This document shows, one piece after another, positions 3,319 through 49,370 of a DNA stretch of 64,000 bases. Origin of the DNA: Candidatus Poribacteria bacterium. GTDB taxonomy: Bacteria; Poribacteria; WGA-4E; WGA-3G. The stretch is from assembly GCA_964291315.2 (NCBI GenBank), contig OZ219753.1, positions 416,001 through 480,000 of the forward strand, in the 5' to 3' direction. The notes below the pieces were generated by a model. That model was not told the origin of the DNA. It saw nothing but the letters and a program-made list of their open reading frames with translations, and searched no databases. Numbering within the stretch: the stretch's first letter is position 1; each line of letters begins with the position of its first letter. Position numbers and translations under genes: made by a program.

Positions 3319-3615
3319 ATGAGCAATGAAGCATTAGGAATGGTTGAAACACGCGGACTCGTCGGCGCGGTTGAAGCCGCGGATGCTATGGTGAAAGCCG
3401 CAAACGTTAAACTGATGGGGAAAGAACAAGTCGGCGGCGGTTTTGTCACTGTCATGGTGCGTGGGGATGTCGGCGCGGTGCAAGCCGCAACAGACGCAGG
3501 CGCAGAAGCTGCAAAAACCGTCGGAGAATTGGTATCCGTACACGTCATCCCTCGCCCACACTCAGATGTGGAAACCATTCTCGGCGCGAGTTCAGCCAAA
3601 GGTGGCAGCAAATAA
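3319..3615 (+). CDS. Bacterial microcompartment shell hexamer protein (BMC-H, EutM/PduA/CcmK family)
   Basis: [26 protein letters not shown]...RGDVGAV...HVIPRPH; SD AAGGAG. Confidence 0.97.
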
Positions 3616-43137: not shown

Positions 43138-43548
43138 TTAACTAGATGTTGCTGCCACTTCAGCTTTTTCATCTATGCCGGTTGCTATGTCTTCAGATGC
43201 CTCATTACTTTCCAAGGTCGTCTGTTTCGCCTCGGCAGCGAGCTCTGTTTTCAGTTTATTGATATCGCCTTCATAACAGACAATCATGTAACGCAGGATC
43301 GTCTCAATGACATGTAAAGATCTGTTGAGTTCAGCGACTAAATTCGGGGGGCTCTCAAAAATGTAAAGCACATAGTAACCTTCGCTACGTTTCCGAATCG
43401 GATAGGCCAGCCGCTTCTTTCCCCAAGGATCAACCTTTAAAAGAGATCCGCTACTTTCGATAATGTCCTTTACTTGATTCGTAAGAGCTTCTGCTTCGCT
43501 CTCATCACAGTCGGGGGTGATGATAAGCAAGAGTTCGTAAGGATTCAA
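43138..43548 (-). CDS. rpsF: 30S ribosomal protein S6 (TTG start)
   Basis: YE...I..P, WGKKRLAYPI, GYY, ILRY. Confidence 0.96.
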   Translation of the reverse strand: MNPYELLLIITPDCDESEAEALTNQVKDIIESSGSLLKVDPWGKKRLAYPIRKRSEGYYVLYIFESPPNLVAELNRSLHVIETILRYMIVCYEGDINKLKTELAAEAKQTTLESNEASEDIATGIDEKAEVAATSS

Positions 43549-43555
43549 ATTGCTA

Positions 43556-43612
43556 TGCCTCTCTTTGGACTAATGGCATCCCTGCAATTTTAACAAGAGC
43601 AGGGGCAGAGAT
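43556..43612 (-). promoter_or_regulatory. Probable S6:S18 ribosomal-protein leader RNA
   Basis: Minus strand ctctgcCCCTGC-loop-GCAGGG-at-GCCA-ttagtccaaagagagg: a hairpin followed by a CCR element just before the rpsF SD, as in the known S6:S18 leader. Confidence 0.7.
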
Positions 43613-43701
43613 TAAGGAAGTAAATTCCGCCTAGCGTGAACATGCTGAGAATGCAATCACACCTTAAACGGCATTCAATTCACCAATTGTTAGTTTATAT
43701 A

Positions 43702-43730
43702 ATTATACCACATTTTGATCCCTATATCAA
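43702..43730 (-). promoter_or_regulatory. Sigma70 promoter for the rpsF operon
   Basis: TTGATA-17 bp-TATAAT with extended -10 TG. Confidence 0.8.
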
Positions 43731-43888
43731 CCAAAAACCAATTTTTTACAAAATTACTTAAACAGAGCAACTATCATTCATAGCAGAATAGGTAAAGCGT
43801 ACTCTGGAGATGTACTGGACAATGCCCCTGACGTGCTGATGAAGTCGGAGCACTGTTTCTAATCCTGCCCCAATCGAGAAAGGTAAGC

Positions 43889-43902
43889 TAACGTGAGTGT
43901 GA
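43889..43902 (-). repeat. Inverted copy of the TCAAACTCACGTTA site
   Basis: taacgtgagtgtga matches the reverse complement of 44048-44061 at 13/14. Confidence 0.65.
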
Positions 43903-44041
43903 AAAAAGTTTAGTGTTTAGAGCTGCTTGGTAAATCGTGTCTCTGCCGGAGTTCAGCGAGGGACTATACTGAGGAAATACTGCCTCTACAGTTTTCAAAA
44001 TTATACAAATGGGTTCTCTTTTCCGAAAAAAAGCAGTGAAT

Positions 44042-44061
44042 TATCTATCAAACTCACGTTA
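44042..44061 (+). repeat. Left direct repeat flanking the Mod-like gene
   Basis: tatctatcaaactcacgtta; 19/20 identical to 47121-47140. Confidence 0.85.
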
Positions 44062-44155
44062 TAATATGCCTACAGATGTGCGTTTTGTATCAACTAAAAA
44101 ACGCACAATTTCATTACCAACCTAACCCTTGATTTTCGATAAATGAGGTCCCAGA

Positions 44156-47111
44156 ATGTCAGCAAAGAAACGCACCGCTAAGCCAAAAGAGGTCCGAGAC
44201 TACCGACACGGCACCGCTACGCGAAAGAATAACCCGCCTGCAGGCATCGCCGCACAAGGGAAGATCCAAGAGCCCCCGAAACGGCAATACGCATACAACC
44301 CACACCTGCCACCGAGTCTCCGATCCGACCCAGACGCAGACGCAGACAAACTCCCCGAACTCCTCCACACCGCACAGCAGCGACCGCTCTCCGCAGATGA
44401 GGCGAAGACGCTCGCCGAGGCACTCCGACACCACGCCCCCTGGCTTGAATGGACAGGCAAACAGGAGAACGCAACCTTCAGCGTCGACCCCGTGGCACTC
44501 CACATCCACGAGCGTGTCAGCAGCAAAGCAATCCTGAAAACCGCAAAGCGCCAAAACGTCCAGCGCGAACTCTTCGCTGATCCGCAGCAGGATTACAGCA
44601 GAGCGGTTGACTTTTACCAACACGATGTAGATTGGGCGAATCGCCTGATCCTTGGGGATAGTCTCACGGTGATGAGTTCCCTTGCACAACGTGAAAATCT
44701 CGGGGGCAAGGTGCAGATGATCTACATAGACCCGCCGTATGGCATCAAGTTTGCCTCTAACTTCCAACCCAGCACTTTTCAGCGGGATGTGAAAGAGAGG
44801 TCCCAGGACTTGACGCGTGAGCGTGAGCAGATCAAGGCGTATCGGGATACGTGGCGTTTGGGTATCCACTCATATCTTGCGTATCTGCGAGATCGGTTGA
44901 TTGTTGCGAAGGAGTTGTTGACCGATAGCGGCAGCGTCTTTGTGCAGATAGGAGATGAGAATGTGCATCGCGTGCGATGTGTCATGGACGAGGTGTTCGG
45001 GAGCGAGAATTTTGTCAACCAATTGATTTTCACTAAAACTAGATCTTTAGTTTCATCGGATTTTGTGACGACGATATGTGATTACATTCTTTGGTATGCC
45101 AGAGACAAAAAGTTAGCAAAACGGAAAATGAGAAAAGTCTTTTTGAAGCGACAGGATAATAGTCTCGCGTCTCATTTTGAGAATTCCAATGGGGAAATTC
45201 TGACTGTTCGGGAGCATAATTTGAAACAGCAAGATGATGAATCTGTTGAGGATTACAAGCCTTTTATGTCAGATAATTTAATTCGTCGACCCAACCCTGA
45301 AATCGCTTTTGATTGGCAAGGTATAAAAATCCAGGGACGCTTTAGAACTAACGAACAAGGCATAAAACGTGCCTTGCAAGCAAATAGAATTTTGTTTACA
45401 AGATCAGGTATCCGGTATAAATTTTTTCTTGATGACTTCCCTGTTTCACCACTCAACCATCTTTGGAGTGATGTGATTGGTGCACAAAATCCTGTCTATA
45501 TTGTTCAAACGAATACAAAAGTCATTGAACGCTGCCTTCTCATGACGACAGATCCCGGCGATCTTGTCCTCGATCCAACTTGTGGAAGTGGCAGCACCGC
45601 GTATGTTGCCGAGCAGTGGGGCAGACGCTGGATAACCATTGATACCAGCCGCGTGGCTGTCGCCTTAGCCCGACAACGCTTATTGACAGGAGCCTTTGAT
45701 TACTACAAACTCAAGGATGAGTCGAAAGGCATCGCGGGTGGCTTCATCAATAAACAAGCTCCGCATATCACCCTCAAAAGTATCGCCCAAAACACTGCCC
45801 TGGATCCGATTTTTGAGAAACATGAGCCGATATTGAAAGAGAAGTTGGATACTCTGAACGACAACTTATCACAGATTACCCCCCCCGCTTCGCATAAAAC
45901 TCCTCGCAAAACTCACCGATAAGCAGAAAAAACACGGCAAAACTGCTATCACAGACGCAGATAAAAGACGCTGGCAGCTACCAGATACACACTGGAACGA
46001 CTGGCAAGTACCCTTCGATACAGACCCCGACTGGCCAAAACCACTACAACACGCTCTCATAAACTACCGAAACGCATGGCAAGCAAAGATGCACGATGTC
46101 AACGCATGCATCGCCGCAGCATCTGAAACCGAAGAATTTGTCGATCAGCCACACATCGACAGAAAACGAGTGCGCGTCACCGGACCCTTCACCGTAGAGG
46201 CAGTGCAACCCGCAGAAGAGTCGCTCGACCTTGATTCACCCATCGCAGCACAACCCGAAGAAGTCAAAACCACTTTTGATGCCGAAACCGACACGCACCA
46301 AGCAGTCAATGCCGAGGCATACCTCGAACAGATGATACATCACCTCCGACACGACGGCGTCCGATTCCCTAATAACAACACCTTGAAATTCCACACCCTC
46401 GACCCCCTCGAAGCCGATATCCTCCACGCAGAAGGCACTTGGAAACACTGCGATACCGAATGCTCCGTCGCCGTCGCATTTGGACCGCAACACGGTCCTG
46501 TTACCGCAATGCAAGTCGAGGCGTGTCTGCCCATCGCCTCCCGCCGCGGCTACGATGAACTTGTCTTCGCAGGGTTCAGTTTTGACGGCGCGGCACAAGC
46601 AGTTATCCAAGAGGATCCGAACCCCAGGGTCCGTATCCACATGGCACACATCAACCCGGATGTCGCAATGGGCGGACTCCTCAAGCAGACACCCTCAACG
46701 CAGCTCTTTACCGTCTTCGGAATGCCCCGCACGACTCTTGAGGAAGCCGGCGAAGAGGAATATATTATCAAGATGGAAGGCGTGGACATCTACAACCCGG
46801 TAGACAACACGGTCAGCTCTGCGGGTGCGGATAAGGTGGCGGCGTGGTTTGTGGATAGCGACTACGATGGGCGCACGTTCTGCATCACGCAAGCCTTCTT
46901 CCCGGACAAGACAGCATGGAAGAAGATCGCCCGTGCCTTGAGAGGCGTTATTGATGAAGAGCAGTTTGAGCGTTTCAGCGGCACAACGTCGTTTCCGTTC
47001 CGTCTCGGACCGCATAAACAGGTGGCGGTCAAAGTCATCGACCCGCGCGGAAATGAGGTGATGCGCTTACATAATGTGGCAGACCCAAAGCGTTCTCTTT
47101 GGACAAAGTAA
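44156..47111 (+). pseudogene. Type III Mod-like adenine DNA methyltransferase split by a one-base frameshift in a C8 tract (ORFs 44156-45922 and 46089-47111)
   Basis: NRLILGDSL, GKVQMIYIDPPY, VLDPTCGSG. Deleting one C at 45879-45886 reads ITPPLRIKLL...WQVPFDTDPDWP...AKMHDVN into the second ORF, giving 984 aa. Confidence 0.85.
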
Positions 47112-47120
47112 ACACGGACG

Positions 47121-47140
47121 TATCTATCAAACTTACGTTA
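47121..47140 (+). repeat. Right direct repeat flanking the Mod-like gene
   Basis: tatctatcaaacttacgtta, 9 bp after the stop codon. Confidence 0.85.
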
Positions 47141-47207
47141 GTAATACATATTAGCACATAAAATTTTGAAGTCCCTGATTCTGCTGCCATTTTTTCATCA
47201 GATTTGT

Positions 47208-47236
47208 TTGCTTTCTTAACTGATTTATAGTATAAT
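47208..47236 (+). promoter_or_regulatory. Sigma70-type promoter
   Basis: TTGCTT-17 bp-TATAAT. Confidence 0.6.
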
Positions 47237-47432
47237 TAATAATAGGTCTGTAATAGCGCGGTTCATAGATGTTTAATTCATTGTGCATGAATCGCCCCGG
47301 TTTCTACTGCTTCATCCGTTTTGAATCTTAGGAGTATTTACTTGTAGGAGCGAGATCTCCTCCCTTGTATTGCTAACCTCTTTCTGCTAATCACTTATGT
47401 GGTTAATCACCATATCAAAATAGGAGAGTCTA

Positions 47433-49370
47433 ATGCAATCTCAAAATATTATTGAGGAACAGTACCACGAAGCTGCGAACGCTCTCATCGAGAAAGTCGA
47501 GAAGGATCCCTATATTCTTGCAGTGATTGTCGCTGGTAGTTTTTCTTATGCGCAAGTATGGGAAAAATCGGACCTTGATGTCGAACTCATCGGCAGAGAT
47601 GCAATGCGTCCTACCCAACCCTTCTTTTTGCTCGTCGAGAACGGTGTAAACATCCACGCTAATATAACGCCACGGAACGTTTTTAAACAGACGATAGAGA
47701 GTGCACAACAAGGGTCTTTCATGCACTCTTATTTCTCACACAGCACCCTTCTCTTTTCACGCGATGCCTCTATTGAGGAGTGGTATGATAAAAATGCCGA
47801 CCGTAACAGCATCGGGGAACGCGATAAACAGCGCCAACTCCTCAATGTTGTCTCCAGTACTTTGCCGAGCCTTCTATATGCTGAAAAGCAATTTTACGTT
47901 AATCACGATTGTCTCACCGCCTTTTTGTCTATACTCGACGTGGTCCAAGGGCTAGCACGGATAGAAGTCCTTTTAAATAACAAAATCCCCGCCCGCGAGG
48001 TCATCCAACCCGCGCTCCAATATAACCCCGACTTCTTCAACCACGTCTATACCGATCTAATCAGCTGTGAAAAGAATGAATCTGTTATTCAGGGCGCGCT
48101 CCAGGCAATTAATGGGTATCTCGATGAACGGCAGTTTATCTTTCAACCCATTCTCGATTATCTAGATGAACAGAAGGTGCCTCGCACCGGCACCGAATTG
48201 AACGCTGACTTAGGACGCGGGCGACATAATGATGAGGAAGGATCCCACAAATTTAATGAAGAGTCACTCGACTTGTTATGCCAATGGTTGACGTGGAAAG
48301 GTATTATCAGACAAGTCGCAATGCCTCTAAAACTTACGGTGAAAAGCCAAGTCGCTGTGGAAGAACCCGCCTACTATTACGACGGCACCAAGCCACAACA
48401 GGCACAGACACCTTATAAGAATGACATCCACACACACATTCACGCCGCCCTCGCCAGTCTAACGGACACTCTCGAACAGGATCGGTACGTTCTAGCTGCT
48501 ATTCTCACGAGCAACCTCGCCGAAGACAATGTCTGGAAAAAGACCGCTGTTCACATAACCTTGATTTTCCGAGATGGTACAAAATTTAAAGAGAAAAAGT
48601 TTCAACTCGTCGAACACAGTATCCCGTTCCGAGTTGAGCTCTACACGCGCAGCAATTATAGGAAATTGCTTGAGAGAACGCTGCAAGGCAGCTCACTCCA
48701 TTCAATCCTTGCAGAGAGCCGTGTCCTCTTTTCGAAGGACGGCCTTTTCGCAGTAGATAGCGATGCGAATCTTCTTGTTGGTGATCCTTCCTGTTTGCAG
48801 GTCGGTGATAGAGATAAGCAATCCCAGCTTTTCAACGCTGCTGCTGGCGTGACAGCGATCCTCGCGAAAGCTGAGAAATGGTTACATCTCAAACACGACA
48901 TCGACTACACATTTCTATATTTAAAGTACGCTATCAGAGAGCTGGCACGTATTGAAGTTCTCAAACACAACGAGACACCCAGACGCAAAGTTATCTATCA
49001 AGCTCTCACATACAACCCGTCCTTTTTCAACTCCGTTTTCATCGATCTTGTAGACAAACCTAAAGACGAAACCATGCTTCGCGAGGCGCTTGAACAAATC
49101 GACCAATATCTGGAAGCCAATTTACAGTTATTGTTCAAACCGTTGTTTGATTTTTTAGAAGGAGCAAATGAGAAGCAGACGATAACCGATCTCTACACAC
49201 ATTTCGGTAACCGTGCCCTTCCCCTCGAATTAGCGTGTGAGTGGCTTGCACAGAAAGAGATCATCGAGCAATTCTCTGCACCGGTCCGTTTGACTATGGA
49301 TAGCCAAGTTTCCGTAGAAGAACCTTCATATTACTTCGATGCAAATAATCCGTTTTTGTTTAGTGTGTAA
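47433..49370 (+). CDS. Tandemly duplicated pol-beta-superfamily nucleotidyltransferase-domain protein
   Basis: First half AVIVAGS...VWEKSDLD. The second half is homologous but reads LTSN...VWKKTAVH. Both halves end V.VEEP.YY.D. Confidence 0.8.
   Translation: MQSQNIIEEQYHEAANALIEKVEKDPYILAVIVAGSFSYAQVWEKSDLDVELIGRDAMRPTQPFFLLVENGVNIHANITPRNVFKQTIESAQQGSFMHSYFSHSTLLFSRDASIEEWYDKNADRNSIGERDKQRQLLNVVSSTLPSLLYAEKQFYVNHDCLTAFLSILDVVQGLARIEVLLNNKIPAREVIQPALQYNPDFFNHVYTDLISCEKNESVIQGALQAINGYLDERQFIFQPILDYLDEQKVPRTGTELNADLGRGRHNDEEGSHKFNEESLDLLCQWLTWKGIIRQVAMPLKLTVKSQVAVEEPAYYYDGTKPQQAQTPYKNDIHTHIHAALASLTDTLEQDRYVLAAILTSNLAEDNVWKKTAVHITLIFRDGTKFKEKKFQLVEHSIPFRVELYTRSNYRKLLERTLQGSSLHSILAESRVLFSKDGLFAVDSDANLLVGDPSCLQVGDRDKQSQLFNAAAGVTAILAKAEKWLHLKHDIDYTFLYLKYAIRELARIEVLKHNETPRRKVIYQALTYNPSFFNSVFIDLVDKPKDETMLREALEQIDQYLEANLQLLFKPLFDFLEGANEKQTITDLYTHFGNRALPLELACEWLAQKEIIEQFSAPVRLTMDSQVSVEEPSYYFDANNPFLFSV

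Follow-up and report, generated by a model that had tools for sequence, protein, structure and literature searches.

The window analysed here is a 64,000-nucleotide stretch of a Candidatus Poribacteria genome (C4:416001-480000; the genome, hereafter G000, comprises four contigs and 4.40 Mb), and positions without a contig name are counted within it. Beside rpsF it carries a gene for a Type III Mod-like N6/N4 DNA methyltransferase (44156 to 47111, forward strand), of about 985 residues if it is made as one protein. The gene lies between two 20-bp direct repeats, at 44042 to 44061 and 47121 to 47140, both on the forward strand, which are identical at 19 of 20 positions and start 3,079 bp apart. 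The left repeat enters a TATAAT hexamer (44060 to 44065), formed by its own terminal TTA and the flanking TAAT, and the right repeat begins 9 bp past the stop codon (47109 to 47111). All this agrees with an earlier reading made from the sequence alone, which took the repeats for the sites of a new gene-cassette system. That reading also counted exactly one enclosed gene; a single methyltransferase is indeed bracketed, read as two open reading frames (ORFs), one in frame 0 (44156 to 45922) and one in frame +1 (46089 to 47111, open from 45858), with the change of frame at a run of eight cytosines (C8). PF01555 matches the N-terminal half of the product, and no Pfam family matches the C-terminal half. 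Along the PADLOC profile MTase_III PDLC03632, the N-terminal half covers positions 4 to 612 and the C-terminal half positions 613 to 981.

Both repeats are the tips of longer remnants of an insertion sequence (IS) of the IS982 family. The left 20-mer makes up the final 20 nt of the left inverted repeat (IRL) arm in a 173-bp remnant (43889 to 44061), which carries inverted 14-mers at its ends and whose arms align with the right inverted repeat (IRR) and the IRL of a full-length element from a sister genome (L001, described below). Its IRR arm (43889 to about 43960) keeps the last transposase codons and has its outer end, at 43889, facing rpsF, whereas the outer end of its IRL arm (about 43990 to 44061), at 44061, faces the methyltransferase. 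Being small and non-coding, with both parental ends in inverted orientation, the remnant fits a transposable element of the miniature inverted-repeat kind (MITE) or other non-autonomous IS. The right 20-mer is the terminal 20 nt of a solo IRL arm of about 55 bp (47085 to 47140, forward strand, outer end at 47140) that has replaced the original end of the methyltransferase gene and holds its last eight or so codons and the stop codon. A second MITE-like copy is located at 994 to 1126. Its end at 994 to 1007 is exact, lies on the reverse strand and stands 35 nt ahead of the ATG of the ORF 959-588; its right end is a weak, degenerate IRL-type sequence (1114 to 1126; 13 nt with several changes).

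The 14-bp core of the repeats, TCAAACTYACGTTA, occurs four times in the window with at most one mismatch, against 0.07 copies expected, and none of 100 shuffled sequences reached four. The two core copies that the sequence-only reading had listed besides the direct repeats both exist, although the first starts at 994 and not at 992. They were described as further copies of the same kind; both (994 to 1007 and 43889 to 43902) lie on the opposite strand and are hence the inverted partners. Nor is the core always near accessory genes, as had been stated: one copy faces the rpsF-ssb-rpsR-rplI-dnaB operon, and genome-wide the motif is adjoined by genes of all kinds. In the whole of G000 there are 34 exact copies. 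The number rises to 90 with at most one mismatch, compared with 1 for a reversed control pattern, and to 190 with at most two, compared with 65; at exactly three mismatches the matches are noise (618 against 628). Crude ORF calls (at least 80 residues, covering 85-89% of the contigs) leave 83 of the 90 copies outside coding sequence. Upstream of the core the sequences fall into a few recurrent 40-nt families, and the information content drops sharply just past ..ACGTTA.

Many of these copies form outward-facing inverted pairs 100-230 bp apart. A degenerate pattern of the end found 172 ends in G000 and 14 in the control, and these ends comprise 27 outward pairs (80-300 bp) and 118 solo ends. 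Target site duplications (TSDs) of IS982-family elements measure 3-9 bp (ISfinder). Among the 27 pairs, 11 are flanked by TSDs of 3-5 bp, as opposed to 2, 0, 0 and 1 of 27 in four shifted controls.

The parent element was found in sister genomes. The exact motif is present in all 18 genomes of the genus (4-71 copies each) and in five of 12 genomes from other genera of the order (1-2 copies each), and in fragmented sister assemblies exact copies stand at contig ends or 1,010 bp apart. The sister-genome copy L001 measures 1,023 bp, has perfect 14-bp inverted ends and contains one ORF of 298 residues, which passes the curated IS982 model NF033520 of NCBIfam (254.8 bits for a cut-off of 130) and matches PF13612 at 1e-62. 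Alignment identifies the recurrent 40-nt families as the element's two arms. The arm that we had labelled B is the reverse complement of its left end, including the -10 box of the transposase promoter, and the arm labelled A/C is its right end, including the last transposase codons. The arms in the window match the IRL and IRR of L001 across about 60-70 nt. We conclude with high confidence that the 20-bp direct repeats are the outer IRL tips of two decayed copies of one IS982-family IS, and that the core is the terminal inverted repeat (TIR) of this element. A stop-free full-length transposase occurs in six of the 18 genomes of the genus. In G000 no IS982 transposase scores above the cut-off of 130; the best match reaches 51.1 bits, and fragments only are present. 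Thus, the approximately 170 ends of G000 are orphans, that is, MITE-like internal-deletion derivatives and solo ends.

The placement of the motif could also suggest that it is primarily a lineage-specific promoter or regulator-binding element ahead of genes. All four copies in the window point toward a downstream gene, 54 of the 83 intergenic copies are followed by an ORF in the same orientation (median distance 96 nt), and the last two bases of the motif are TA, with A/T-rich sequence after them. IS982-family elements have also been reported to form fusion and outward promoters (PMC9330008). Outward-facing pairs, however, face both of their neighbours by construction, and the last position of the putative -10 box is a T in only 47% of copies. 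A consensus scan calls no sigma-70-like site at 44037 to 44065. The best such site on the rpsF side (43730 to 43702) is well downstream of the motif, in a leader that is conserved in relatives lacking the motif; this leader is about 150-240 nt long (43549 to 43789) and about 80% conserved in four relatives up to 43789. The conserved sequence moreover extends 60-70 nt inward and matches the IS arms. We reject a promoter as the primary identity of the motif on the consensus scan, the IS-arm matches and the end-base statistics taken together, and we regard this explanation as very improbable. The junction of IRL tip and flank may have a secondary role as a promoter.

The sequence-only reading had proposed that the repeats are attachment sites of a site-specific recombinase acting in trans, of the Xer/pdif or integron kind, which shuttles defence genes between short genomic sites. 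Direct repeats do bracket one accessory gene at two loci, P1 (the window locus) and P2, and comparison with sister genomes shows the gene to be an insertion. No other methyltransferase locus has a direct-repeat bracket, and P1 and P2 are copies of one another that extend into the flanks. The motif belongs, as its TIR, to a DDE transposon that encodes its own transposase, and most copies are cargo-free inverted pairs with TSDs, which are characteristic of transposition rather than of conservative recombination. Neither the 20-mer nor the core contains a two-arm dyad around a spacer. The limits of homology between the six paralogous loci (described below) vary from pair to pair and are not inside the repeats. 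In a genome scan, the other direct pairs enclose unrelated genes, in either orientation. A circle junction was searched for in Logan contigs of four of six sequencing runs and none was found; these runs belong to one study that possibly includes the source sample, and they are not independent evidence. One of the contigs spans 43615 to 44196 without differences, and the contigs of the four runs contain no joint across the methyltransferase that would skip the gene and list no indel at the C8 run. We now consider recombinase attachment sites an extremely improbable identity for the repeats. What survives of the proposal is that they are dispersed ends of mobile DNA whose non-autonomous copies necessarily moved in trans; they are IS982 ends and not cassette sites.

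The methyltransferase belongs to a family of six paralogues in G000 (P1 to P6), all on contig C4. Besides P1 they are located at C4 positions 1871689, 2074943, 2575526, 2928760 and 2995150, P5 lying at 2.93 Mb and P3 at 2995150. None of the six has a Res gene beside it, and their neighbours encode Cas6, a HEAT-repeat protein, NFACT, PBP1, UvrB, an S-adenosylmethionine (SAM) methyltransferase and GH129. The flanking parts of the six genes are 87-95% identical, whereas their central segments are unrelated; that of P1 (forward strand, 45015 to 45460 or 45518) has no DNA similarity with the other five, and the sequence on either side of it is 87-94% identical. The central segment is probably the target-recognition part. 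Because the central segments are unrelated while the 5' and 3' parts are 87-95% identical, the comparison suggests six specificities in genes whose remaining parts are kept alike by gene conversion. Of 40 other genomes of the genus, 13 encode a homologue of the methyltransferase.

The IS ends are distributed unevenly over the six loci. P1, P4 and P6 have in common the upstream IRL tip and its junction ..ACGTTA|TAATAT.., of which P2 has an altered form. The 3' IRL arm is common to P1 and P2 and degenerate in P5 and P6; from 47085 on, P3 and P4 end differently from P1. Homology between P1 and P4 begins at 43894, 5 nt inside the outer end of the 173-bp remnant. Directly upstream of P3 (C4:2995150-2995330), where other copies carry an IS end, the alignment shows a tRNA-like sequence. 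In the leader of the methyltransferase we noted a predicted hairpin with a 9-bp stem (44078 to 44106) that is kept, in the alignment, in P1, P4, P5 and P6. An Rfam scan of 43400 to 47500 gave no match at E-values up to 0.1. Elsewhere in the window, a 98-residue ORF (3319 to 3615) has an N-terminus that we take to resemble a bacterial microcompartment shell protein.

Comparison with sister genomes bears out the view that the methyltransferase is an accessory insertion between core genes. P2 is an insertion between the genes for PBP1 and uvrB, which in 27 of 29 sister loci adjoin with no methyltransferase, transposase or motif between them. This insertion is bounded on the left by the 3' IRL arm's outer tip, beside the remainder of the uvrB promoter region, and on its right side the IRL is followed by 142 nt of IS body. 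The rpsF site is less informative. The methyltransferase, the nucleotidyltransferase-like gene and uvrA are each absent within 1.5 kb of rpsF from all 28 sister loci, one of which contains the motif, and the rpsF-side intergenic DNA of the relatives is too diverged for exact break points. The upstream neighbours of the nucleotidyltransferase-like gene are not conserved across five relatives. The site between NFACT and a 348-residue ORF holds other small genes in a sister genome, so that it is no clean empty site.

The methyltransferase loci also coincide with broken gene order. In five of five close relatives, rpsF has a SAM methyltransferase gene directly upstream of it. In G000 this gene (C4:2924886-2925790) is beside P5, and rpsF (C4:0.46 Mb; in the region 43138 to 43900 of the window) is beside P1. 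P1 and P5 are in mutually inverted orientation, and the arrangement suggests that one recombination between P1 and P5 produced a 2.47-Mb inversion, which would account for the split. Likewise, NFACT and the 348-residue ORF adjoin in one relative and are split between P4 and P5 in G000. When the site between the SAM methyltransferase gene and rpsF is reconstructed, TTACCT is found in both outer flanks, with a shift of 2 nt at one end; four relatives have a single copy, as ATTACCT or ATTCCT. The split adjacencies may, alternatively, be assembly mis-joins at the 3-kb repeats.

How the methyltransferase came to lie between IS ends is less clear-cut than the identity of the ends. In one history, the gene would have travelled as cargo of an IS982 composite transposon (IS-cargo-IS), the flanking IS copies would then have decayed, and the unit would have multiplied to six loci that later recombined among themselves. 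The block from 43889 to 47140 has an outer IRR tip at 43889, an inner IRL tip at 44061 and an outer IRL tip at 47140. Its outer tips thus match the ends expected of a composite formed by two IS copies in direct orientation: the cargo is enclosed by a pair of copies of one IS, both of which are present as remnants only, and the outermost ends are inverted. The start of the P1/P4 homology, the borders of the P2 insertion and a published precedent (PluTI, below) also speak for it, and we regard the composite-transposon history as plausible, at somewhat less than an even chance.

Several observations weigh against it. No TSD surrounds the 173-bp remnant, whose flanks (..ggtaagc and taatatg..) differ, and none surrounds the block from 43889 to 47140. 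The full-length copies in sister genomes offer no usable TSD either, L001 standing at a contig end and L002 to L004 lacking a match. P1 and P2 share 6 nt past the IRL tip, which a clean transposition unit would not carry unless a target preference explains them. At the reconstructed rpsF site the IRL tip on the P5 side is damaged, in addition to the 2-nt offset of TTACCT. G000 has no transposase able to move anything today. Finally, the limits of homology among the six loci are nested and pair-specific, P3 has no IS end on either side, P4 has an upstream end only, and P5 has a single degenerate one, at its 3' side.

These last points speak at the same time for independent insertions, the explanation in which the methyltransferase was never cargo. 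IS982 copies or MITEs, favouring AT-rich intergenic DNA, would have landed by chance beside an ancestral copy, one in the promoter region and one in the 3' end, and the scarred gene would then have spread through segmental duplication, gene conversion or DNA uptake. The MITE upstream of P6 has a TSD of its own (TAA) and is thus a separate insertion event, and with 118 solo ends genome-wide an IS neighbour acquired by chance is not rare. Chance insertion fits less well with the left limits of the P1/P4 homology and of the P2 insertion, which are both at outer IS tips, and with the inverted IRR/IRL arrangement of the outermost ends, which is that of a composite. Single-gene units between core genes at six places also require some mobilising mechanism. 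We consider independent insertions nearly as probable as not.

The second unusual feature of the methyltransferase gene is its frame break. The passage from frame 0 to frame +1 takes place at the same C8 run in all six paralogues. In P1 the run (45879 to 45886) is part of a 25-mer, CTTATCACAGATTAC-C8-GCT (45865 to 45889, forward strand). All 13 sister orthologues are in one frame at this junction, P1 being one base longer, and the closest sister orthologue (L012; G045:C158) has about 15 cytosines and a 20-nt insertion at the codon position of the C8 run. The gene fits a Type III Mod in which a simple repeat within the ORF sets the frame. The 25-mer occurs 19 times in G000, always with the out-of-frame length C8, and in none of 60 other genomes of the genus. 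In addition to the window copy there are copies on contig C1 at 165751, 318422, 320496, 324550, 431346 and 468340, and on C4 at 277478, 1055965, 1078098, 1128083, 1873416, 2073276, 2159903, 2332205, 2573790, 2927000, 2993405 and 3218664. Six of the 19 are those of the methyltransferase paralogues. The other 13, oppositely oriented, coincide with the frame break in restriction-modification genes of two unrelated families, namely five Type III Mod genes (176 and about 510 residues; PDLC03635) and eight Type IIG genes (291 and about 796 residues; Eco57I, TaqI_C).

Within the Type III Mod family the run, with TAAT-N5-GATAAG after it, is a native feature, and run lengths of G7, G8, G9, G10 and G11 are found across species and paralogues; in the coding sense, stop codons follow the run in both wrong frames. 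By its pattern across genomes, this G7-G11 variation is the signature of a slippage-prone contingency tract. The variation also disfavours a programmed +1 frameshift or transcriptional slippage at the C8/G8 run. The Type IIG genes of G000 contain the module within a 70-nt insertion (69+1), at a place where two relatives have a continuous ORF. One Logan contig from a related strain passes from the C run into the other mod family and has at least one extra C. These comparisons raise the idea that the 25-bp module (core GATTA-C8-GCT) is a portable on/off switch, native to the Type III Mod genes and copied into the two other families in this species only. It would have reached the Type IIG family within the 70-nt insertion and the Mod-like gene as a patch replacing 24 native bases. 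We hold this to be rather doubtful as yet, and the C8 lengths may instead reflect an assembly error repeated in one sequence context. If the idea is true, homopolymer contingency tracts spread as a unit between unrelated defence genes, by a copy mechanism not yet described.

Long homopolymers are abundant in G000 beyond the shared 25-mer. There are 510 runs of G or C that are 6 nt long, 47 of 7 nt, 45 of 8 nt, 18 of 9 nt and 2 of 10 nt, and the 65 runs of at least 8 compare with about 5 expected from the decay of the shorter runs. The sequence G8-TAAT occurs 40 times, compared with no copy in 31 of 40 relatives and 1-9 copies in the other nine. Further tracts split seven MmeI-like Type IIG genes or stand just upstream of genes with DUF1156, DUF499-HEPN and FGE-sulfatase domains. 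With such an abundance this uncultured bacterium would equal Campylobacter or Helicobacter in its wealth of contingency loci, and the findings raise the question of how homopolymer tracts are seeded. A literature search in a limited collection returned nothing on this IS element or on shared flanks of homopolymer tracts.

In Helicobacter, Campylobacter and Neisseria, poly-G/C tracts form contingency loci, and in restriction-modification genes, as in the Type III mod genes of phasevarions, a G/C run sets the frame. The tracts of G000 resemble these in that a G/C run sets the frame and in the G7-G11 variation of the genus's Type III mod family. They differ in that one identical 25-mer is shared by three unrelated gene families, with all 19 copies at length 8. 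The methyltransferase locus itself invites comparison with pdif modules and integron cassettes, in which short repeats likewise bracket an accessory gene. A pdif site consists of two inverted arms around a short spacer, and the repeats of a module are inverted; the repeats described here are direct, lack a two-arm dyad and are the ends of a DDE transposon. They show no attC hairpin and have no linked recombinase, although neither a fold of the sites nor a search for an integrase was run.

Closer relatives are found among the IS-linked systems. IS-linked movement of restriction-modification genes within a genome has been shown experimentally with IS1 and IS5 in Escherichia coli (Takahashi et al. 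2011, PMC3031569); the evidence for G000 is comparative alone. The symbiont Cardinium has IS982-family elements and MITEs derived from them, such as ISCca4 and MITECca01, and there short non-coding elements with the inverted repeats of an IS982-family parent are found genome-wide (PMC9769881). The elements of G000 are similarly short, non-coding and spread through the genome, and the parents are partly decayed. They have another sequence, are more heterogeneous and measure 100-230 bp, whereas the Cardinium elements measure about 240 bp, and G000 has no parental transposase left.

The nearest match is the PluTI restriction-modification unit of Photorhabdus luminescens (Khan et al. 2010), which is flanked by 16-bp direct repeats (PMC2875022). 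Site-specific recombination was the first explanation that these repeats called to mind, but they were then recognised as belonging to a pair of non-functional IS982-family elements, and the authors propose that the unit entered as a composite transposon between non-functional IS982 copies. Both cases comprise a methyltransferase-containing unit between short direct repeats that derive from decayed IS982-family elements. They differ in that G000 has a single Mod-like methyltransferase without a nuclease, present in six copies with differing central segments, and in that one of its ISs survives as a 173-bp remnant with two ends and the other as a 55-bp arm fused into the gene. The repeats are no longer a candidate for a new cassette system and are filed as IS982 ends with a near-identical published case. 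The six loci between core genes offer a second and richer case of a methyltransferase unit enclosed by decayed IS982 copies, one in which the methyltransferase copies appear to have served as the substrate for large rearrangements.

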